A stretch of 64,000 nt of DNA from Nitrospiria bacterium (GCA_035498035.1 DATKAN010000025.1:17190-81189); one strand, 5' to 3'; positions 22,086 to 43,485 are shown, counted from the first letter of the stretch. The notes: generated from the sequence alone by a model not told the origin. Translations and numbers: made by a program.

Positions 22086-22631
22086 ACAAAAATGCGCACT
22101 GAAGCGGTTCGTAAGCCGAGTTCTGTGCCCCTTTGGATCGCTCCGCCGGGGTGGCGATCATTTCTCTGGGATCCCGATTACTCGGGACCTCAAGCAACCA
22201 ACCCGTTCCGCCTATTATATTCGGGAGCCCGTGCGGCAAAGAAGGACCGAAGGTCCACCGATGCCCCCGCCCCCCGCGCTCGCGCCGGCGAAGCCGGCCG
22301 CTCGCTTATAATTTCGAACGGGCCGTTCTATGGCCCTCACGGACCAGACGGAACCTATTTGGTCTTGCTCCGGATGGGGTTTGCCGTGCCCCCGTCATCA
22401 CTGACGGGGCGGTGAGCTCTTACCTCGCCGTTTCACCCTTGCCCGTATGCGTCCGAGATGGCTGGAGCTCCCTGCCACCTCTTTCGCACCGTCGGCGGTC
22501 TGTTCTCTGTGGCACTTTCCGTCCCCTCGCGAGGCCTGGGCGTTACCCAGCATCCCGCCCTCTGGAGCTCGGACTTTCCTCACCCCGCGTGCTCGTGCGG
22601 GGCGCGATCACCTGAACCACTTCAGTGCGCA
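22086..22631 (-). ncRNA. rnpB: RNase P RNA (bacterial type A), unusually long (~545 nt)
   Basis: Minus-strand conserved blocks: AGGAAAGTCCGAGCTCC (RC of 22568-22584), GGGTAACGCCCAGG (RC of ~22540), ACAGAACTCGGCTTAC (RC of ~22110). P1 pairing between the 5' GTGCGCACTGAAGTGGTTC and the 3' GAACCGCTTCAGTGCGCA. Confidence 0.75.
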
Positions 22632-35724: not shown

Positions 35725-37458
35725 TTGAGGGAGGAACTTTTCGTGTCCGTGTTCATCCGGGTACTGGCCGTTCTGGTTCTGTCGGGTCTGGCAAGCCTGT
35801 TTTCGCCATCGGCCTTCGCCGAGGAAGAATCCACCGAGCCCTATGGGACGGTGAGGCTTTCCCGCATCAGCCTCATCGATGGAGAGGCGCTTCTTCAGCG
35901 GGGCGATGACGAGGAGTGGGTGGCGGCCTCGATTAATATGCCGCTTCGCCCTCACGACAAGCTCTGGACGACCGACGACTCCCGGGCCGAGGTCCAATTC
36001 GACGACGGGACCGTGGTCCGGCTTGCGGAAAACACCAGCCTCGACCTCTTAAGCCTTGATCCGGGCTGGATCCACTTCCAGGTCACGTTGGGCGTGGCCA
36101 GCATCGAGGCCAAGGCCCCGTTTCGCACGGGCGCGCAGCAGCCCTTCATGGAGATCGACACGCCGCAGGCCACGGCCCAGATCACCCGTTCGGCGGAATT
36201 TCGGGTGGACGTGGCGGACGACGGGTCCACCGCGATGACGGTCCGCCAGGGAGAGCTGGAATTAAACCGCGACGAGGGGCCGGTCGTGATCGCGGCCGAT
36301 CAACGCGTCTCGATCGAGGGGGGCGACTCCCCGGACTACCTCGTGGATTCGGCCGGGGAGCCGGATGACTGGGATAAATGGAATAAAGACCGCGATGATC
36401 AAGAGACCGCGGCCGAGAGCCATGAACATCTCCCCTCGGACACGGAGATGGGGGTGTCGGAATTGAATACCTACGGGGGCTGGAGTCAGATCCAGCCCTA
36501 CGGCTGGGTCTGGGCCCCCCGAGTGGCCGTGGGATGGGCTCCGTATCATGTCGGCCGCTGGGTCTGGGTCGAGCCGTGGGGCTGGACCTGGGTTTCCTAC
36601 GAACCCTGGGGTTGGCTCCCCTATCACTACGGCCGGTGGATCGTGGTCGGAACCGTCGGTTGGGTCTGGGTGCCCGGTCCGGCCCTGGGAATCTGGACAC
36701 CCGGCTGCGTGCGGTTTTATTACGGGCCGACCTGGGTGAGTTGGGTGCCGCTCGGACCCCACGAGATCTATTATCACCACAAGCCCCCCGACCACAGGCA
36801 TTTCAATTCCAACCCGATCAATTCCCATGTCCCGGGGGCGACGACCGTGATATCCCGGCGTCAGTTCGTCACCGGCGCGCCGGAAGACGAGAGGTTCAAG
36901 CCGCCCAAGGATCCGATTCGGTCCGGCCGTGTGGCCGTCGGCCCGCCGCCGGTCGTGCCGACGCGCGCCAGTCTGCATCCCGCGCCGGATAAAGTGGTCA
37001 CGGCGGATTGGCTTCCGCCCCAAACGATCAATCGCCCGGTGGTCTACACCCGTCCTCCCTCGGCCCCGCCGCCCCTCTTCGAGCACCGGGTGAAGGAAAT
37101 TCACAGTGTCATCACAAAAGGCCTGCCCCCCGCCGCCGCGCCCTCGCTTCCGGCGAGACGCCCGCCGACCATCGAAGGGGGTCGCGCGGTTCATAGAGAC
37201 ATCATCGTCAGGGAAGTCGAACCCTCACAGCATTCCGTCCTTCCAAGGCCAACGCCACGCCTGCCGGAGCAGAGGGTCGAACCCGGGCGCATACCCAAGA
37301 CACGGCAACCGTCTCCCCCCAAGAGCATCAAGTTGCCGCGGCTTCCCTCGGCGCCCACCGCTCCGGGTCCTTCGGCGGGAGGAACCCGACAGGTCCGGCC
37401 CCTTTATAAGGTCCCCCCGCCATCCAGAATCCAAGCCCCGGCCGGTCCTTCGCGATAG
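35725..37458 (+). CDS. Secreted FecR-domain protein with Trp-rich repeat block and proline-rich C-terminal tail
   Basis: Signal peptide. FecR-like beta region (TVRLSRISLIDGEALL...VQFDDGTVVRLAENTSLDL). Then WxW repeats (YGWVWAPRVAVGWAPYHVGRWVWVEPWGWTWVSYEPWGWLPYHYGRWIVVGTVGWVWVPG). About 200 aa Pro-rich tail. Confidence 0.55.
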   Translation: MREELFVSVFIRVLAVLVLSGLASLFSPSAFAEEESTEPYGTVRLSRISLIDGEALLQRGDDEEWVAASINMPLRPHDKLWTTDDSRAEVQFDDGTVVRLAENTSLDLLSLDPGWIHFQVTLGVASIEAKAPFRTGAQQPFMEIDTPQATAQITRSAEFRVDVADDGSTAMTVRQGELELNRDEGPVVIAADQRVSIEGGDSPDYLVDSAGEPDDWDKWNKDRDDQETAAESHEHLPSDTEMGVSELNTYGGWSQIQPYGWVWAPRVAVGWAPYHVGRWVWVEPWGWTWVSYEPWGWLPYHYGRWIVVGTVGWVWVPGPALGIWTPGCVRFYYGPTWVSWVPLGPHEIYYHHKPPDHRHFNSNPINSHVPGATTVISRRQFVTGAPEDERFKPPKDPIRSGRVAVGPPPVVPTRASLHPAPDKVVTADWLPPQTINRPVVYTRPPSAPPPLFEHRVKEIHSVITKGLPPAAAPSLPARRPPTIEGGRAVHRDIIVREVEPSQHSVLPRPTPRLPEQRVEPGRIPKTRQPSPPKSIKLPRLPSAPTAPGPSAGGTRQVRPLYKVPPPSRIQAPAGPSR

Positions 37459-37648
37459 GACGCCGTATCACGCATCGACGCGAAGAACCTGCTTTCATCG
37501 AATACCAAATTGGAACCCGTCGCGGCCCGCACAAATCCCCATCCACTCTATATATAGTGATGCAGATCGAATATATTCGATTTCCTGCCCTGATAACAAC
37601 ATAGGTGACACCCTGATCAACTCGACCCTCCCTGCTCCGTGGCCGCAG

Positions 37649-37740
37649 TTCGACCGGACTAAGGCTCGTCCGCTCAATTTTCCGAAGGGGCTTGGCGGAA
37701 AATTGACCCTGAAGGGCCGCGTCCTTCGCCGAGTCCGGTG
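37649..37740. repeat. Repeat family B, copy 1 (~92 nt, terminal inverted repeats ACCGGACT / AGTCCGGT)
   Basis: Aligns at about 70% with 58450..58547. In copy 2 the terminal stem changes compensatorily to ACCCGACT / AGTCGGGT. Confidence 0.5.
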
Positions 37741-37828
37741 CCCGAACCTCGGCCAAGTCGCGACTCGGGCCGATGCTGATCAGTGTCACCCATATCTATT
37801 TTCATCAAAATAGATTCGATTTTCCCCC

Positions 37829-37878
37829 TTGACAAGCCCCGCCCGCTCGATTATAGTATAGGTGTCCATTTGGACACC
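37829..37878 (+). promoter_or_regulatory. lexA promoter (TTGACA-17-TATAGT) with 7-4-7 perfect palindrome GGTGTCC-ATTT-GGACACC at +1 (candidate LexA operator)
   Basis: -35 at 37829-37834, -10 at 37852-37857, palindrome at 37861-37878. lexA ATG at 37891. Confidence 0.5.
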
Positions 37879-37890
37879 CATTGAATCCCG

Positions 37891-38499
37891 ATGAAGAACC
37901 CGCTGACCGACAGGCAGGCCGAGGTCCTGAACTTCGTGAATCAATTCATCGCGAGGTCCGGATATCCGCCCACCGTCCGCGAGATCGCACGGCATCTCGG
38001 GATCCGCGGACACCACGCGGTCCGAAAGCATCTCCTGGCTTTGGAAAAAAACGGTCACCTCACCCGCGGGCGCGGCGCGCGATCGATCGGGATCGCCGAT
38101 CAACCTCAGGCCGTTTCCGTCCCGATCCTGGGCCAGGTGGCCGCGGGAAAGCCCATTCTCGCGGAAGAAAACATCCTCGGAACTTTGGCGTTGGACCGAT
38201 CCGTGACGCGCGGGGGTCCGGTCTTCCTTTTGAAGATCAAGGGCGACAGCATGATCGGAGCCGGAATTTTAGACGGCGATTACGTGCTGGTGAAAGCGCA
38301 GGCCCAGGCCGAGAACGGGGAGATCGCGGTGGTCCTGGCGGAGGACGAGGCCACCGTGAAGCGCGTCTTCCGCCGCGGCGACAAGATCGTTCTGCAACCC
38401 GAGAACCCCGCGCATCAACCCATGACATTCACCCCAAAAGACGCCCTTCGTATCCTCGGCAAGGTCCTGGGCGTGGTCCGGTTTCCCAATCTCAATTAG
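37891..38499 (+). CDS. lexA: LexA repressor (winged-helix DBD + S24 peptidase)
   Basis: LexA_DNA_bind N-terminus (TDRQAEVLNFV...GYPPTVREIA). AG cleavage site (QVAAGKPI). Ser-Lys dyad (KGDSMIGAGI...AVVLAEDEATVKR). Confidence 0.85.
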   Translation: MKNPLTDRQAEVLNFVNQFIARSGYPPTVREIARHLGIRGHHAVRKHLLALEKNGHLTRGRGARSIGIADQPQAVSVPILGQVAAGKPILAEENILGTLALDRSVTRGGPVFLLKIKGDSMIGAGILDGDYVLVKAQAQAENGEIAVVLAEDEATVKRVFRRGDKIVLQPENPAHQPMTFTPKDALRILGKVLGVVRFPNLN

Positions 38500-38517
38500 T
38501 CAAGAGGAGAGCTTCGA

Positions 38518-38747
38518 TGGCTGAGCAAAATTATTTTTACTGGAGATGCCCCGACTGCGTTCATGTGCGAGATCTGGATCTGGGAAAGATGACAAACCGC
38601 TGTCGGCTCATCGATCAGGGAGAATCGCCGGTGGATGGAACGCTCTGGGAAAACCAGGATCACGACCTCTGCCCGGTCTTCGAACCCAAAGCCGATCAAC
38701 ACGCAGCCGTACTGATGGCCCAAGGACGCACAACGCAAAGTCTCTAA
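38518..38747 (+). CDS. Small C4 zinc-ribbon protein (76 aa)
   Basis: CPDC...C...C. Strong SD AAGAGGAGAG 6 nt upstream. 18 nt after the lexA stop. Confidence 0.45.
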
Positions 38748-38783
38748 CGCGCTTCACAATTGAAAGGGCAAGGACCCTACTCG

Positions 38784-39494
38784 ATGGCCGATCCTTCTTC
38801 TCAATCGTCGTTGTTCGAAATCGAAGCGACCGATCTTTCCTGGCAGAAGATCGTCACGCCGGCCGCCTTGGAAGCCGTGGCGCGGGATCAGGGCCGGATC
38901 ATCGGGTTCATCGGACATCGCGGGGTGTTCGCGCTCGGCCATTATTTGATGGCCTGGCGACTGCTTCAGGACGAGTCGGTCGTCCTGGTCGACGGGGCCA
39001 ACATCATAGACCTCCCGCTGATCCTGAAGCTCACGGACGGTCCTAAAACGAATCGCCGGCGGCTCCTGGACCGTCTCCATCTATCACGGGCCTTCACCGC
39101 GCACCAGTTGGAGGCCGTCATTTGCGAGCGCTTGGAGAAAGCGCTCCAAAAATACAAAAGCCGTCTTTGCTTCGTCTCCGGATTGCTGGACACGTTCTAT
39201 GACGAGGAAGTTCCGGCGTGGGAAGCGACGCGCATCCTTCGCAAGACGACGGAAAAGCTCCGCGCCTTGGCGCATCAAGGCTGCCGACTGATCCTTCTGG
39301 CCCCCGACCCGCCTGCGCCGACAGCGCAGAGGAAAAACCTCGCGCCCTTCGTAATCAAATCCGCGAACCGGATTTTTGCGTTGGTCCATGAGAAGGATCG
39401 ATACCTGCTGATCGACGACGCCCAAACCGCACGAGATAAGCACTGGGTCCTTCCTTTGATGCCGTTCTCGATCAAGCGATCTTCTTCGAGGTGA
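38784..39494 (+). CDS. Degenerate RecA-fold protein, ImuA/SulA-like
   Basis: GRIIGFIGHRGVFALGHYLMAW...ESVVLVDGANIID aligns with the RecA/KaiC Walker A region (GKT lost). Later CRLILLAPD strand. About 237 aa as in ImuA. An alternative TTG start at 38760. Confidence 0.5.
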   Translation: MADPSSQSSLFEIEATDLSWQKIVTPAALEAVARDQGRIIGFIGHRGVFALGHYLMAWRLLQDESVVLVDGANIIDLPLILKLTDGPKTNRRRLLDRLHLSRAFTAHQLEAVICERLEKALQKYKSRLCFVSGLLDTFYDEEVPAWEATRILRKTTEKLRALAHQGCRLILLAPDPPAPTAQRKNLAPFVIKSANRIFALVHEKDRYLLIDDAQTARDKHWVLPLMPFSIKRSSSR

Positions 39495-39497
39495 TTC

Positions 39498-39770
39498 ATG
39501 GGCCGGACGCTGGCCACCTTCACGATGCAGGTCAATCAGGCCCTGGAGGAATGGGGAAAATTTAAACGGGCCCTGCGCAAAGAGGATCAGGCGATTATCG
39601 AGTTGCTTTTTGCCGATGCGCGCTATCATGCGCAGGCCGGGGCTTATCTCGCGCCGACCGATCCCTTCTCGGCCATGCTCCTTTCGATGCTGCTCGAGGA
39701 ACGCAAAGCGCGTCTGGCTTTGGAGAAACGGCTCCATGAACTCGAAACCGGATTCAAGGCGCAGGCTTAG
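39498..39770 (+). CDS. Small helical hypothetical protein (90 aa)
   Basis: ATG 4 nt after the preceding stop. Coding-like composition. No family recognised. Confidence 0.4.
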   Translation: MGRTLATFTMQVNQALEEWGKFKRALRKEDQAIIELLFADARYHAQAGAYLAPTDPFSAMLLSMLLEERKARLALEKRLHELETGFKAQA

Positions 39771-41970
39771 GGGCTGGTTGTTCGACGTCTACCCTGCCGC
39801 TGAAGGCATGGTCCTCTGGATCATCGCGGAGGACGGACGTCGGCTCCGGCTGACCGATCCGTTTCATCCTTCCTTTTATTTCGAGGGTCCGTCGATTGAA
39901 TCAAGAAACGCCGTTCTTCATCTGTCACGCGAAAAGACTCCCGTCACGGCCCGGCACGTCGAGCGCAGCGAGTTCTTCAGCGGCCGGGCGATCCCGGTGG
40001 TGCAGGTTACAGTCCACGATCCCACGGAATACGTCGGCATCGTAAAGAGGCTCGTCCGTATCGGCGACCGACTGCAATTCTATAATTGTGACATCGACCT
40101 CTCTCAGCTCTATTTCTATGAACGAAACCTATTCCCTTTGGCCTTGTGTTCCGTGGATCGCACCGAAACGGAAACGATCCAAACCATCCAAGCGCTCGAT
40201 TCGCCCTGGGATCCGGATTATTCCCTTCCCCCGCTCCGCTCCATGCATCTGCGGTTGGAAGGGGACCTCATCAATCCAAATCACGGAGGTCAAGGGAAGC
40301 TTGAGATCCGGGATGACCATGGCCGGTGTGTGCTTGAAGGGGATGATCCGGCCGAGGTGTTGACCGGGCTCAACAATCACCTCCGTAAAAACGATCCGGA
40401 CCTGATTTTCACCGATTGGGGAGACTCCTTCATCATCCCGCATGTTCAAATGCTTTCGGAGCGATGCAGGATTCCGGTCGCCTTCAATCGCGACAGGCGC
40501 ATGGCGATCGCCGGGAAAAAGATGCGTTCCTATGCCTCCTATGGACGGATGGTCCACAGCGCCGGGGCGCAGACCTTCTTCGGCCGTTGGCACATCGACC
40601 GGCAGAATTCGTTCATTCTCAACGAGGCGGGTCTCGAAGGACTGTTTGAACAGGCCCGGGTCACAAAGCTCCCGATTCAGCATATGGCCCGGACCTCGAC
40701 CGGAACGGGGATCACCTCCATGCAGCTTGAGACGGCTTACCGGGCGGGAATCCTCATTCCGTGGCGAAAGAGCGAGCCGGAGGAGTTCAAGTCCGGCTTC
40801 GAGCTGCTCACGATCGATAAAGGCGGCATGGTCTTTCTTCCGCCGGTGGGTTTTCAGGAAGAGGTCGCCGAGCTTGATTTCGCCTCGATGTATCCCGCCA
40901 TCATGGCCCGGTTCAACATCTCGCCCGAAACGGTCGGCTGTTCCTGCTGCCCCGGAAATCGCGTTCCGGAAACGGGCTATACGATCTGCACAAAACGAAA
41001 GGGACTTGTCCCGGAAACCCTCGAGCCGCTTCTTGCCAAGCGAGCGCAGTATAAACAACGACTCAAATCCACGACCGATCCGAAACGGCGTGAACGTTAC
41101 GATCAGCGCCAGAACGCGCTGAAATGGCTGCTCGTGGTCTCCTTCGGTTATCTGGGTTACAAGAATGCCCGTTTCGGGCGCATCGAAGCGCATGAGTGCG
41201 TGACGGCTTACAGTCGTGAGACGCTTCTTCAAGCCAAGGAGATTGCGGAAGGCCGTGGCTATCAACTCCTCCATGCCATCGTGGATTCCGTCTGGGTCAA
41301 GAAGGCCGGTGCGACGGAGCCCGACTATCGGAAGCTTGCGGATGCGATCACTCAGGGAACCGGCCTTCCGATCAACCTGGAAGGGATTTATCGTTGGATC
41401 GGGTTCCTTCCCTCGAAGACGCGGCCGAGCCTTTCGGTTCCGAACCGGTTTTTGGGCGTCTTTCGTACCGGAGCGATGAAGATACGGGGCCTGGAAGTGC
41501 GCCGCACCGACACGCCTTCCCTGGTCAAAGAAGCTCAAACCCGTATGATCGAGGTTTTAAATCAGGCCCAGGATCTTAAAGAATATGAGGCACAAATTCC
41601 TGAGGTCGTCAAAATCCTGGCCGAATACCGTCGGCGACTCGTTGAAGGACAGGTCAATCTAAGAGAGCTGGTCATCACGCGAACTCTTTCCCAGGACCCC
41701 CGGGAATACAAGAAGGCGACGCTTTCGGCCGTGGTTTCCCATGAACTGTTGGCCCGCGGGGTCAAACTCGCGCCGGGGGAAGCGATTCAGTACGTCATCA
41801 CCCATGACGCGGATAAAGATCCGGCCGGCCGGGCCCGGGCCTATGCGACCCTCACGGCGGATCATGCCTATGACGTCGAAAAGTACAGCGAGCTGCTTTT
41901 AAAAAGCGGTGAAAGCCTCCTCGCCCTGTTTGGCTACGATCTTAAAAGGCTGGAGCAATTGACCCGATAA
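39736..41970 (+). CDS. Family-B DNA polymerase, divergent: exonuclease motifs inactivated, polymerase motifs B/C and KKRY eroded
   Basis: PolB N-terminal domain (GWLFDVYP...). Motif A DFASMYPAIM intact. Motif B KWLLVVSFGYLG (N and Y lost). Motif C HAIVDS versus YGDTDS. Exo I RLE versus DIE. Exo II FTDWGDSFII (FD lost). KKRY replaced by NRFL. Start overlaps the upstream small ORF by 35 nt; alternative TTG at 39784. Confidence 0.8.
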   Translation: MNSKPDSRRRLRGWLFDVYPAAEGMVLWIIAEDGRRLRLTDPFHPSFYFEGPSIESRNAVLHLSREKTPVTARHVERSEFFSGRAIPVVQVTVHDPTEYVGIVKRLVRIGDRLQFYNCDIDLSQLYFYERNLFPLALCSVDRTETETIQTIQALDSPWDPDYSLPPLRSMHLRLEGDLINPNHGGQGKLEIRDDHGRCVLEGDDPAEVLTGLNNHLRKNDPDLIFTDWGDSFIIPHVQMLSERCRIPVAFNRDRRMAIAGKKMRSYASYGRMVHSAGAQTFFGRWHIDRQNSFILNEAGLEGLFEQARVTKLPIQHMARTSTGTGITSMQLETAYRAGILIPWRKSEPEEFKSGFELLTIDKGGMVFLPPVGFQEEVAELDFASMYPAIMARFNISPETVGCSCCPGNRVPETGYTICTKRKGLVPETLEPLLAKRAQYKQRLKSTTDPKRRERYDQRQNALKWLLVVSFGYLGYKNARFGRIEAHECVTAYSRETLLQAKEIAEGRGYQLLHAIVDSVWVKKAGATEPDYRKLADAITQGTGLPINLEGIYRWIGFLPSKTRPSLSVPNRFLGVFRTGAMKIRGLEVRRTDTPSLVKEAQTRMIEVLNQAQDLKEYEAQIPEVVKILAEYRRRLVEGQVNLRELVITRTLSQDPREYKKATLSAVVSHELLARGVKLAPGEAIQYVITHDADKDPAGRARAYATLTADHAYDVEKYSELLLKSGESLLALFGYDLKRLEQLTR

Positions 41971-42024
41971 ATATCCAGACAGTGACTTGATTCACCGCCC
42001 GGGCGAGGGCTATGATGAAGCCCT

Positions 42025-42717
42025 ATGTGCGCGAGATACACCCTTACGGAAGAGATCATCCTGATCCTGAAACGCCTGTTGATCAAGTCCCCGATGAGAG
42101 ACTTCCACCCGCGGTATAATATCGCGCCCTCCCAGAACGCGCCCGTCATCCTGAACGAAGAGGGAAGATCGGTTCAAGTCTTCCGCTGGGGGCTCATCCC
42201 CTCCTGGGCCAAGGATCCGTCCATCGGCTATAAGTTGATCAATGCCCGCGCCGAGTCGGTCGCCGAGAAACCCAGTTTCAGAAATGCATTTAAAAAAAGA
42301 AGATGCCTCATTCCGGCCGACGGGTTTTATGAATGGCGTTTGGAATCGGACGGCCGAACGAAGACCCCCATGCGAATCCGGCTCAAATCAAAGGAGCCGT
42401 TCACCTTCGCCGGGCTATGGGAAACATGGAAGGACCGGCAGGAAAAAGAGTTTCGGACCTTTACGATCATTACGACCGAGCCGAATGAAATCCTGCAACC
42501 GATACATAACCGGATCCCCGTGATCATGAAACCGGAGGATGAAGAAGCCTGGCTCGACCCGCAGGCCGACGTCAAGCATTTGGAAAAGATTTTAGCGCCC
42601 TATTCGTCAAACGAGATGGAAGCCTACGCGGTGTCTAAGTTGGTCAACAGTCCGAAACACGATTCGCCCGACTGCATCGAACCGGCCGTGGTCCCACCTC
42701 CTTCCACGCTATTTTAA
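42025..42717 (+). CDS. yedK: SOS-response-associated peptidase (SRAP/YedK/HMCES family), abasic-site DNA-protein crosslinking enzyme
   Basis: Starts MCARY (invariant Cys2 nucleophile). SRAP core motifs (PRYNIAPSQ, FRWGLIPSWAKD, INARAE, RCLIPADGFYEW). Confidence 0.8.
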   Translation: MCARYTLTEEIILILKRLLIKSPMRDFHPRYNIAPSQNAPVILNEEGRSVQVFRWGLIPSWAKDPSIGYKLINARAESVAEKPSFRNAFKKRRCLIPADGFYEWRLESDGRTKTPMRIRLKSKEPFTFAGLWETWKDRQEKEFRTFTIITTEPNEILQPIHNRIPVIMKPEDEEAWLDPQADVKHLEKILAPYSSNEMEAYAVSKLVNSPKHDSPDCIEPAVVPPPSTLF

Positions 42718-42838
42718 TGTTCCCTTGTGCCTCTCTAAGATGAAAACCTACTTTATAAAGGGACAGGGTGGGATACCCCCTCTTTTCCGCCCGACCTACC
42801 CATTAATCCTCATCGCATCCCAAATTCCGTTAGGAAGC

Positions 42839-42875
42839 GGCGCGGACCTCACAGGCCCGCGCCGAGGATTTTTAC
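42839..42875 (+). terminator. Rho-independent terminator candidate after yedK
   Basis: GGCGCGG/CCGCGCC 7-bp stem followed by GAGGATTTTTA. Confidence 0.45.
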
Positions 42876-42957
42876 GCAAATTAACCCGACATTGAACTGG
42901 ACGTAACCTGACCTCCGTATATTCGCCGTGTGAAATTAATGAAACGGAGGGGAGAAC

Positions 42958-43197
42958 ATGAACTGCCTGAAATGCAGCGGGATGATGAATTACGAGGCGT
43001 TCGTCAGCGGGGCGGCCGAGGGGACGTCCTGGGCCTACGAAGGCTGGCGGTGCATCTATTGCGGGGATATCGTCGATCCGGTCATCCTCCGGCACCGTCA
43101 AAAGATCCGGAATCGAGAGGCCGTTCCGGTCAGAAAAGACCCGGTCCGGAGCCCGGGCCAAAGCGGAATGGCGGCCCGGAAACAGGTTCCCGGGTGA
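42958..43197 (+). CDS. Small zinc-ribbon protein (79 aa)
   Basis: CxxC...CxxC (CLKCSG...CIYCGD). Strong SD GGAGGGGAG. Confidence 0.45.
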   Translation: MNCLKCSGMMNYEAFVSGAAEGTSWAYEGWRCIYCGDIVDPVILRHRQKIRNREAVPVRKDPVRSPGQSGMAARKQVPG

Positions 43198-43206
43198 CCG
43201 CCGCCG

Positions 43207-43485
43207 TCATCGCCGATGATGGCTGAGGAACTCGTCGATCTCTTGGAGGGTAAACTTGTTGAGTTGCACGATCTTCGCCTGGGATCGGTAAGCCACGGGC
43301 AAGATCGACCGGGCCTCATCTTTGCTTCCCATCTCCAAAGTGATCCAGGCCTTATGTTCCCCGTCCCAGCATCCCCAATCCGCATTCGTCAGAAAATGAG
43401 AGCCCGTTTCGAGCAAGACCTTGACGGCCTTGGCGCAAGCCACCGGCTCGGCCTCGTGCGGAACCTCGATGAGATATTTTGCCAT
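43207..43485 (-). CDS. Hypothetical protein (92 aa)
   Basis: AGGGAGAG SD 8 nt upstream of the ATG. No family recognised. Confidence 0.4.
   Translation of the reverse strand: MAKYLIEVPHEAEPVACAKAVKVLLETGSHFLTNADWGCWDGEHKAWITLEMGSKDEARSILPVAYRSQAKIVQLNKFTLQEIDEFLSHHRR

Follow-up and report, generated by a model that had tools for sequence, protein, structure and literature searches.

The window analysed here is a stretch of 64,000 nucleotides from a Nitrospiria bacterium (GCA_035498035.1 DATKAN010000025.1:17190-81189). It carries a cassette that reads, in order, promoter and palindrome, lexA, a 76-aa ORF, iRadA, PPB2, PolB2 and SRAP. PolB2 is the last core gene of this cassette, and its start is overlapped by the PPB2 gene over 35 nt. 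The features are listed with positions counted from the first nucleotide of the window:

37829-37857, plus strand: sigma-70-type promoter TTGACA-17 nt-TATAGT, upstream of lexA
37858-37881, no strand assigned: 24-bp palindrome ATAGGTGTCCATTTGGACACCCAT, putative LexA operator, immediately after the -10 hexamer
37891-38499, plus strand: lexA, 202 aa
38517-38747, plus strand: Cys-rich ORF of 76 aa between lexA and iRadA, preceded by the Shine-Dalgarno sequence AAGAGGAG
38784-39494, plus strand: iRadA, 236 aa, RadA/Rad51 fold with a destroyed Walker A motif
38802-38816, plus strand: QSSLF, a candidate beta-clamp binding motif formed by the N-terminal residues 7-11 of iRadA
39498-39770, plus strand: PPB2 (arCOG07300/DUF8156 family), 90 aa, between iRadA and PolB2
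39736-41970, plus strand: PolB2 (bacterial group G2), very probable catalytic subunit, one intact ORF of 744 aa
42025-42717, plus strand: SRAP, a YedK/HMCES-type abasic-site shielding protein

The upstream end of the cassette bears the hallmarks of SOS control. The LexA protein scores 197 bits against TIGR00498 (cut-off 111), matches the Pfam models LexA_DNA_bind and Peptidase_S24 and carries the cleavage-site sequence VAAGKP. The promoter agrees with the consensus at 11 of 12 positions and is the top promoter match within 37400-43300. Both the TTGACA and the -10 hexamer are kept in four of five aligned sequences (the window and loci L083, L085 and L002); in L082 the TTGACA alone is aligned, with a gap at the -10 region. 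The palindrome emerged from an inverted-repeat search. At the same position the relatives carry GTGTCCAAATGGACAC (L083, L085), GTGTACATTTGTACAC (L082) and GTAAACAAACGTTCAC (L002), recognised by position and symmetry only, and across all five sequences the half-sites co-vary with their symmetry maintained. This pattern suggests that LexA binds the 24-bp palindrome. No second copy of the exact operator sequence occurs in the 64,000-nt window, and the simplified form TGTCC-N4-GGACA was not found upstream of lexA in 80 genome loci.

The genes between lexA and PolB2 are recognisable mainly through their relatives. Scanned singly against Pfam and NCBIfam, the 236/244-aa and 90-aa ORFs returned nothing usable; homology to RadA emerged only with a profile built from locus-derived homologues. 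The iRadA family profile matches Pyrococcus furiosus RadA with E 7.7e-9; the 52 listed matches (E <= 10), 41 of them at E <= 0.02, are all RadA, Rad51, DMC1 or RadB, and 14 of 28 family members match Pfam Rad51. A 100%-identical database protein of 236 aa backs the ATG at 38784, and GHRGVFAL stands in place of the Walker A sequence GEFGSGKT. PPB2 begins with MGRTLATFT, in agreement with the published MGRT arm (PMC11791011); nearly all of 65 loci with PPB2 share an MGR[TN] start, and orthologues carry a precomputed PF26485 match. The family has been described as helical and about 90 aa long, with iRadA-PPB2-PolB2 as the sole gene order in bacteria (PMC11791011). Downstream of PolB2, the SRAP protein starts with MCARY, has an N-terminal Cys2 and covers positions 1-214 of 214 of the Pfam SRAP model (E 3e-77); in L082, L083 and L019, too, a SRAP gene follows PolB2 immediately and in the same orientation. 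Among related loci from many phyla, iRadA and PPB2 are found upstream of PolB2 in 62 of 66; LexA is a near neighbour in 27 of 62 loci, SRAP in 5 of 64.

The 744-aa ORF matches Pfam DNA_pol_B with E 1.7e-41, and an exonuclease-domain Pfam model reaches 16 bits against a cut-off of 23. An AF2 model of the protein is of high quality (pLDDT 89.9, pTM 0.88), including a confidently modelled exonuclease domain (residues 137-310, pLDDT 84-96), and a fold search with this model retrieved archaeal PolBs as best PDB matches (E ~1e-43, TM up to 0.73). A PADLOC 'HEase' match was dismissed as spurious, since it derives from a model of an intein-containing PolB. Motifs were placed by hhalign of a 43-sequence family alignment against E. 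coli Pol II (probability 99.3, 24% identity) and by phmmer against KOD polymerase:

40252-40260, plus strand: Exo I equivalent R173-L-E175, by hhalign (Pol II D-I-E, canonical D-x-E)
40429-40434, plus strand: Exo II equivalent F232-I233, by hhalign and phmmer (canonical F-D)
40597-40602, plus strand: D288-R289, the D(K/R) motif specific to PolB2, in the loop that precedes the palm domain, by family alignment
40873-40905, plus strand: motif A LDFASMYPAIM with catalytic D381 and steric-gate Y386 (reference LDYKSLYPSII)
40939-40989, plus strand: CxCC...C cluster C402, C404, C405 and C418, invariant in the bacterial family alignment
41122-41148, plus strand: motif B KWLLVVSFG (reference KIIMNAFYG), K463 kept, Asn replaced by V467 and Tyr by F470
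41272-41289, plus strand: motif C H513-A-I-V-D517-S (reference YGDTDS), first Asp replaced by I515, catalytic second Asp D517 kept
41440-41451, plus strand: KxY-region equivalent P569-N-R-F572 (Pol II KKRY), Arg and an aromatic residue retained

These placements largely agree with a first-pass annotation, which had aligned the protein to Pol II by eye. Its readings of Exo I (DIE to RLE), Exo II (FD to FI), an intact motif A and a motif C without its first Asp (YGDTDS to HAIVDS) were all reproduced, and the profile alignment did not restore canonical residues at the substituted positions. For motif B the loss of the Asn stands, but the supposed loss of the Tyr is a conservative change to Phe; likewise, KKRY is indeed replaced, but its equivalent is PNRF rather than NRFL, a shift of one residue. 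The family alignment indicates that the substitutions are family traits and not chance. Residue 173 is S, R, K, A, T or L and in none of the 43 sequences Asp, residue 233 is either Ile (24 sequences) or Leu (19), and residue 515 is Ile, Leu or Val in all 43. A motif C with a single conserved Asp and a preceding conserved His is a published signature of PolB2 (PMC7544198). The position of Exo III is ambiguous, as phmmer sets YxxxD on I287..N291, while hhalign and MAFFT set it on F293..E297; the canonical Tyr/Asp pair is present in neither placement.

Two further elements are characteristic of the family. D288 is invariant and followed by Arg in 36 of 43 sequences, and the H-I/V-D context around it is common to the bacterial family and the archaeal relatives. 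The D(K/R) motif has been reported for PolB2 (PMC7544198) and touches the PPB2 arm in published models (PMC11791011); D288-R289 probably corresponds to 253-DK-254 of the Sulfolobus enzyme. The CxCC...C cluster likewise occurs in the archaeal relatives named below. Two cysteines of KOD polymerase fall at the same place, a pair which we take to be the C428-C442 disulfide.

The protein has more than 5500 homologues, and 898 clusters at 50% identity were found with E <= 1e-30. The nearest full-length non-bacterial relatives are PolBs of Thermoplasmatota and Bathyarchaeia, which share the signature motifs H-x-I-x-D-S, KW.LV..FGY.GY, H-I-D and CxCC..C, in keeping with the likeness to archaeal PolB2 proposed in the first-pass annotation. 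These relatives score E 1e-125 to 1e-138, compared with 5e-50 for KOD-type PolB (polymerase domain only); the best-scoring Pol II family model, NCBIfam NF004421, reaches 7.5e-17. The ranking of NCBIfam models is identical for the window protein and its archaeal relatives. The protein falls below the curated cut-offs of NF004416 and NF004418 (415 vs 516 bits) and far below those of the Pol II models (35-61 bits vs 570-1435). By similarity, the protein would probably belong within archaeal PolB2 rather than with PolB1, PolB3 or Pol II. A LexA-linked B-family polymerase in a bacterium could still recall a diverged, single-subunit SOS polymerase of the E. coli Pol II type (group G1), which is likewise SOS-regulated and has an extender role. 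Pol II, however, is a distant relative that acts as a single subunit with an active exonuclease and the C-terminal clamp motif QLGLF. The window protein has a dead exonuclease site, a motif C other than DTD, no C-terminal QLxLF, archaeal proteins as its nearest folds and sequences, and dedicated iRadA and PPB2 partners, so that a Pol II-type assignment is extremely improbable. We consider it very likely that the ORF encodes the catalytic subunit of the bacterial PolB2 (G2) translesion mutasome, of archaeal origin and encoded in a single SOS cassette. The bacterial operon as such is already known from Makarova 2014 (PMC4104785), Kazlauskas 2020 (PMC7544198) and Timinskas 2025 (PMC11791011).

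The pattern of lost and retained residues bears directly on catalysis. D381, K463, D517, R436 and H513 are invariant in the 43 family sequences, and the steric-gate Y386 is kept in 42 of them. The three core genes are under purifying selection, with dN/dS values of 0.08-0.17 for PolB2, 0.14 for iRadA and 0.05-0.13 for PPB2. The exonuclease domain appears to be folded but without an active site, with at least two carboxylates missing (R173, I233), which supports the view that PolB2 is unable to proofread and agrees with the earlier verdict of a dead exonuclease. Since both metal-binding Asp, the motif B Lys, the finger Arg and the steric-gate Tyr are kept, PolB2 is most likely an active DNA polymerase. 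The loss of the motif B Asn and the first motif C Asp could lower its activity or alter its metal preference.

The first-pass annotation had gone further and proposed an inactive, ImuB-like scaffold. In such a scenario, a catalytically dead PolB would merely recruit another polymerase to lesions, as ImuB does for DnaE2, which performs catalysis. The missing carboxylates of the exonuclease, the missing motif B Asn and the missing first motif C Asp fit this idea, as does the presence in the cassette of an inactivated homologue of recombinases, in loose resemblance to imuA-imuB-dnaE2; moreover, PolB2 was predicted to be inactive between 2008 and 2014 (PMC4104785), a view since overturned (PMC7544198). 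Yet conserved catalytic residues would serve no purpose in a pure scaffold, and those that two-metal catalysis and dNTP binding strictly require are invariant here, in a gene under the purifying selection described above. A second polymerase gene, to which a scaffold might hand over, was not found within 37.8-42.8 kb. Furthermore, S. islandicus Dpo2, which has the same I-x-D arrangement, shows robust primer extension, lacks exonuclease activity and extends mismatches and lesion-paired termini (PMC8764526), and primer-independent PolBs are active although they lack the first motif C Asp (PMC7544198). We therefore regard a pure scaffold as improbable. The assignment of activity to the window protein is an extrapolation from Sulfolobus enzymes, which are more distant from it than the 34-36% identical archaeal relatives, and the literature searched contained no biochemical or genetic test of any bacterial PolB2.

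Unusual motifs, together with flanking genes that differ between genomes, might also be expected of a decaying pseudogene, a mobile-element polymerase (pipolin, casposon) or a viral PolB. However, 744 intact codons, the low dN/dS values and thousands of full-length homologues do not fit decay. Integrase, terminal-protein or capsid genes were not found nearby, the window also carries a chromosomal RNase P RNA, and the six-gene cassette is conserved while its flanks vary. An origin of this kind is thus highly improbable.

The operon context, which the first-pass annotation overlooked, is the decisive evidence, and the motif pattern of PolB2 is explained by the surrounding genes. The neighbouring lexA and SRAP genes fit a damage-response rather than a replicative role, as had been proposed before. 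The complex might nonetheless be active and serve mainly to restart or process stalled forks or to regulate replication, as proposed by Makarova 2014. The inactivated recombinase would be a plausible associate for such a task, and archaeal operons often adjoin orc1/cdc6 (PMC11791011, PMC4104785). The bacterial neighbours, however, are lexA and SRAP and not replication-initiation genes. Moreover, Sulfolobus genetics, as cited in PMC11791011, link PolB2 to damage-induced mutagenesis, and S. islandicus Dpo2 is needed for targeted mutagenesis. A main role outside lesion bypass therefore appears unlikely.

The bacterial PolB2 mutasome of the window closely resembles the published G2 operon, exemplified by Leptospirillum ferriphilum LFML04_0990-0993 (PMC4104785). 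This example from 2014 belongs to the same phylum, Nitrospirota. The published operon, which often includes lexA, has the same iRadA-PPB2-PolB2 order, with lexA upstream and SRAP nearby. Also in common are the motif C with one Asp and a His, the unconserved Exo I, the D(K/R) motif, the MGRT arm and the destroyed Walker A of iRadA. Unlike the published operon, the window has an extra 76-aa Cys-rich gene between lexA and iRadA, and the exonuclease domain of its PolB2, instead of being shortened, is complete with a confident fold. Dpo2 of Sulfolobus islandicus and S. solfataricus belongs to the same family (motif C IID, compared with IVD in the window), is damage-inducible, is devoid of exonuclease activity and has iRadA and PPB2 partners. 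It differs by a much shorter protein with a decayed exonuclease domain and by archaeal regulation rather than LexA; activity has been demonstrated for Dpo2 only.

The E. coli Pol V mutasome (UmuD'2C-RecA) and imuA-imuB-dnaE2 are likewise LexA-controlled, multi-subunit mutagenic polymerases, which combine a RecA/Rad51-fold partner with a small subunit bearing an N-terminal arm. The likeness lies in the working principle, as their polymerases belong to the Y and C families and not to family B, and the subunits are non-homologous. In the case of ImuB, the dead polymerase is the scaffold, whereas the B-family protein of the window keeps its catalytic residues. Eukaryotic Pol zeta (Rev3-Rev7-Pol31-Pol32) likewise belongs to the multi-subunit B-family extenders, and its exonuclease domain is inactivated; it differs by unrelated accessory subunits and a canonical DTD motif C.

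The first-pass annotation had also suggested a check for a beta-clamp binding motif. PolB2 itself has none in its last 30 residues, but a candidate is present at the N-terminus of iRadA, where the peptide MADPSSQSSLFEIE bears QSSLF (Q7, L10, F11). Of 67 homologues of iRadA, 36 have a Q-x-[SPL]-L-F motif within residues 3-11; almost all of these 36 belong to the clade at >=45% identity, and shuffled N-termini give a mean of 0.36 matches. The residues flanking QSSLF vary and the motif itself is retained; it may bind the beta clamp. The N-terminal QxSLF is restricted to the clade of the window and was not found in other phyla. In the last 30 residues the motif occurs in 0 of 67 homologues, and the iRadA tail ...HWVLPLMPFSIKRSSSR lacks Qxx[LM]F; the published G2 clamp motifs are C-terminal. 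Archaeal PolB2 complexes carry PCNA motifs instead of beta-clamp motifs. The survey by Timinskas 2025, which found a clamp motif in a fraction of operons, covered the last 30 residues only and was thus unable to detect an N-terminal motif in iRadA (PMC11791011).

Three other candidate clamp motifs were rejected: LPLMPF in iRadA is non-canonical and variable, SLLALF in PolB2 lies inside a modelled thumb helix (714-732) that aligns with the final helix of KOD polymerase, and QLALF of locus L066 forms a core strand before Walker A. The iRadAs of Chloroflexota instead appear to end in QPRLF or QLRLF.

The 76-aa ORF has a counterpart at the equivalent position in L082-L085 and L002, and none of the remaining 79 PolB2 loci contains one. 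Its homologues form 11 clusters (ten of 76 aa, one of 55 aa) at 62-97% identity, with C11, C14, H16, C29 and C52 invariant (C-x2-C-x-H...C...C). No family match was found, and the AF2 model is poor (pLDDT 53.7). The protein might join the complex as a sixth subunit or might regulate it. We tentatively suggest that the clade combines a beta-clamp tether at the iRadA N-terminus (QxSLF, residues 6-11) with the 76-aa protein as an additional subunit or regulator, two features that are absent from published surveys; this combined proposal is possible but less than even in our estimation.

Together, these elements outline how the PolB2 cassette may operate. LexA would repress it through the palindrome, which presumably overlaps the transcription start, and upon DNA damage the self-cleavage of LexA would de-repress the whole cassette. 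By analogy with Dpo2, PolB2 would then probably extend mismatched or lesion-paired primer ends. Published AlphaFold models predict a complex of PolB2 with one iRadA and a PPB2 trimer, in which the MGRT arm is inserted near the active site; such PolB2:iRadA:(PPB2)3 multimers have been modelled for 40 other operons (PMC11791011). In the clade of the window, QSSLF at the iRadA N-terminus may anchor the complex to the beta clamp. SRAP, whose gene is probably transcribed together with the others, would protect abasic sites in single-stranded DNA.

The polymerase is not new: bacterial PolB2 entered the catalogues in 2014, models of its complex followed in 2025, and the iRadA QSSLF motif, the extra small gene and the co-varying operator are minor additions to the published system. 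The main outcome is a correction: a B-family polymerase that appears dead upon inspection of its motifs is very probably a working, proofreading-free SOS polymerase, as judged from its conserved residues and the analogy to Dpo2. To the published model, the clamp-like motif at the iRadA N-terminus and the small additional protein contribute two testable elements. Compact and with a clear promoter and operator, the six-gene cassette is a convenient candidate for reconstitution, which could reveal how damage-induced mutagenesis proceeds in bacteria equipped with this archaeal system.

A B-family polymerase, most probably PolB2 of the bacterial group G2, is encoded by a single intact ORF of 744 codons (Pfam DNA_pol_B, E 1.7e-41), located in a same-strand gene series with the following features.

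Features of the PolB2 cassette (window positions)
37829-37857, + strand: sigma-70-like promoter TTGACA-17-TATAGT, the best-scoring site in the region
37858-37881, no strand: 24-bp palindrome ATAGGTGTCCATTTGGACACCCAT immediately after the promoter, putative LexA operator
37891-38499, + strand: lexA
38517-38747, + strand: 76-aa Cys-rich ORF preceded by a strong Shine-Dalgarno sequence, in the slot between lexA and iRadA
38784-39494, + strand: iRadA, an inactivated RadA/Rad51-fold protein (236-aa ORF, RadA profile match)
38802-38816, + strand: QSSLF, iRadA residues 7-11, N-terminal, resembling a beta-clamp binding motif
39498-39770, + strand: PPB2, 90-aa ORF, N-terminus MGRTLATFT
39736-41970, + strand: PolB2
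42025-42717, + strand: SRAP gene (Pfam E 3e-77), 54 nt downstream of PolB2

A PolB2 family alignment (43 sequences) was compared with E. coli Pol II (NC_000913) by hhalign (probability 99.3, 615 aligned columns), and a second alignment, by phmmer against KOD polymerase, agrees with it on the following motifs. R173-L-E175 lies opposite DIE of Exo I and F232-I233 opposite FD of Exo II, motif A is intact (LDFASMYPAIM, D381), and motif B changes from KIIMNAFYG to KWLLVVSFG, retaining the Lys and replacing Asn by Val and Tyr by Phe. In motif C, YGDTDS becomes HAIVDS, where the first Asp is replaced by Ile and the second is kept, and the KKRY counterpart is P569-N-R-F572. The by-eye alignment of the first-pass annotation was thus right except at KKRY, whose counterpart it placed one residue off. 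The dead exonuclease that it proposed is borne out by Exo I and Exo II. The exonuclease-domain model scores 16 bits, below the cut-off of 23; the placement of Exo III is inconsistent (I287..N291 by phmmer versus F293..E297 by hhalign and MAFFT). The substitutions are fixed traits of the family, not lineage-specific erosion.

The first-pass annotation had likened PolB2 to ImuB, an inactive Y-family scaffold. This reading is ruled against by the invariance of D381, K463, D517, H513 and R436 across the 43 sequences and by low pairwise dN/dS values versus two relatives (0.08-0.17 for PolB2, 0.14 for iRadA and 0.05-0.13 for PPB2; rough values, dS being saturated). Moreover, Dpo2, the PolB2 of Sulfolobus islandicus, with motif C IID, shows robust nucleotide incorporation without detectable exonuclease activity, and efficiently extends mismatched and lesion-paired termini (PMC8764526); targeted mutagenesis requires Dpo2 (cited in PMC11791011). 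The steric-gate Y386 occurs in 42/43 sequences. AlphaFold gave a confident model (pLDDT 89.9, pTM 0.88), which includes a complete exonuclease-domain fold and finds its best structural matches among archaeal PolBs (E about 1e-43, TM up to 0.73). Based on the invariant catalytic residues, the dN/dS values, the model and the behaviour of Dpo2, the best reading of PolB2 is a catalytically competent polymerase without proofreading that would act in translesion synthesis, the activity of the bacterial enzyme being predicted.

PolB2 residues 402-418 (40939-40989, + strand) form a cluster C-x-C-C-x12-C, all four cysteines of which are invariant in the bacterial alignment. The cluster is found in most, not all, archaeal relatives examined (P0261 retains only two of four) and is located at the site of two KOD cysteines, those of the C428-C442 disulfide. 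It could be a metal site, and no discussion of it was found in the PolB2 literature searched. In eight PolB2 representatives with lengths of 1237-1306 aa (P0135, P0156, P0172, P0176, P0188, P0191, P0199 and P0251), the match to the query falls into two stretches, split within motif B at residue 468/469 (KWLLVV|SFG). These proteins look like carriers of an intein within motif B, and an intein-containing PolB model probably caused the PADLOC “HEase” match of the window PolB2.

An exhaustive representative search yielded 898 clusters of PolB2 homologues at E <= 1e-30, and among the farthest full-length matches (34-36% identity) are named proteins of Thermoplasmatota and Bathyarchaeia. The archaeal relatives share H-x-I-x-D-S, KW.LV..FGY.GY[KR]NA, H-I/V-D and the CxCC...C cluster with PolB2, in line with the resemblance to archaeal PolB2 noted earlier. 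NF004416 and NF004418 are the top two NCBIfam models for the window PolB2 and the archaeal and bacterial relatives tested, in swapped order for P0205 and with all scores under the curated cut-offs. The probable membership of the PolB2/G2 clade is based on signatures and similarity. Bacterial G2 is nested inside archaeal B2 and is characterized by an unconserved Exo I, by a motif C that has only one Asp but conserves a His, and by a D(K/R) motif particular to the group (Kazlauskas et al. 2020, PMC7544198).

Scanning a single genome from each species gave 80 PolB2 loci, which belong to Nitrospirota, Armatimonadota, Chloroflexota, Acidobacteriota, Thermodesulfobacteriota, Bacteroidota/Ignavibacteria, Methylomirabilota and other phyla. 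Among the 66 loci that extend far enough upstream, 62 have iRadA and PPB2 ahead of PolB2 on the same strand; a LexA-like gene is found no more than 4.5 kb away in 27/62, SRAP follows in 5/64, and nearly all PPB2 orthologues start with MGR[TN]. The window cassette has the arrangement described before: archaea and some bacteria link PolB2, arCOG07300 (PPB2) and an inactivated radA, and in these bacteria the operon also takes in lexA, as in Leptospirillum ferriphilum, also of the Nitrospirota (Makarova et al. 2014, PMC4104785). According to Timinskas et al. 2025 (PMC11791011), iRadA-PPB2-PolB2 is the only gene order in bacteria, with an enrichment of lexA and SRAP in its vicinity; PPB2 carries a “MGRT” arm at its N-terminus, and the complex is modelled as a heteropentamer PolB2:iRadA:(PPB2)3. 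The damage-tolerance role proposed in the first-pass annotation agrees with the lexA and SRAP neighbours.

PPB2 starts 3 nt after the iRadA stop and overlaps the PolB2 start by 35 nt (39736-39770), which suggests that the three core subunits are translationally coupled; similar PPB2/PolB2 overlaps occur in the related loci L002 and L082. The iRadA ORF had no match as a single sequence, and a profile of homologues from related loci matches P. furiosus RadA (E 7.7e-9), with all matches to E 0.02 being RadA, Rad51, DMC1 or RadB. Pfam Rad51 recognises 14/28 family members. The Walker A motif is destroyed, because GHRGVFAL replaces GEFGSGKT.

A Qxx[LM]F clamp motif is absent from the last 30 residues of both PolB2 and iRadA, and “SLLALF” of PolB2 was rejected, as it is part of model helix 714-732. 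The beta-clamp pentapeptide consensus is QL[SD]LF, which QSSLF of iRadA fits as a candidate clamp-binding motif. Q-x-[SPL]-L-F occurs at residues 3-11 in 36 of 67 iRadA database homologues, a count that overstates independence because the sequences are related; nearly all of the 36 belong to the clade at >=45% identity. Shuffled N-termini gave a mean of 0.36 matches, and the residues beside the motif are variable. Timinskas et al. 2025 kept only motifs <=30 residues from the C-terminus (PMC11791011) and therefore would by design have missed an N-terminal one; in agreement with that survey, we read Chloroflexota iRadAs as ending in QPRLF or QLRLF.

Homologues of the 76-aa ORF form 11 clusters (ten of 76 aa, one of 55 aa; 62-97% identity), with C11, C14, H16, C29 and C52 invariant. 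They are confined to close Nitrospiria relatives and always occupy the same cassette slot, both in the six-gene cassettes of L082 and L083 and in L084 and L085, which are truncated contigs; L082, L083/L084 and the window have different genes around the cassette. L002 likewise has the gene, which the other 79 genome loci lack. No family match was found in Pfam, NCBIfam or PADLOC, and the structure model is too poor to use. Elsewhere in the window, a bacterial class A RNase P RNA (22097-22623, - strand; Rfam, 260.9 bits) spans 527 nt versus a 367-position model and therefore contains insertions of considerable size; the search for tRNA genes across the 64 kb found none.

The palindrome behind the lexA promoter recurs in the same position as GTGTCCAAATGGACAC in L083 and L085, GTGTACATTTGTACAC in L082, GTAAACAAACGTTCAC in L002 and GGTGAACAAATGATCACC in L014. 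Its half-sites co-change among relatives, as expected of an operator for a dimeric repressor, presumably LexA. The variants of the window, L002, L014, L016, L082 and L083 (GTCCA..TGGAC, GTACA..TGTAC, AAACA..CGTTC, GAACA..TGATC) are all palindromic and retain GGT...ACC flanks. Two more palindromes lie upstream of the lexA promoter: TCGAATATATTCGA (37567-37580), outside the aligned stretch of lexA-upstream regions, and ATCTATTTTCATCAAAATAGAT (37794-37815), just upstream of the -35 hexamer and not retained in the alignment of four relatives. The lexA-to-iRadA interval (38480-38780) and the PolB-to-SRAP gap yielded no further inverted repeat (seed 6, >=10 nt), and the cassette contains no promoter-like site stronger than that of lexA, so that one autoregulated transcript from lexA through SRAP is plausible.

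The window system belongs to the already described PolB2 operon type, to which it makes small additions: a clamp-like motif at the iRadA N-terminus, one more gene for a Cys-rich protein and a variant of the operator. The operator variation in Nitrospirota could serve for tracing the co-evolution of LexA and its operator.
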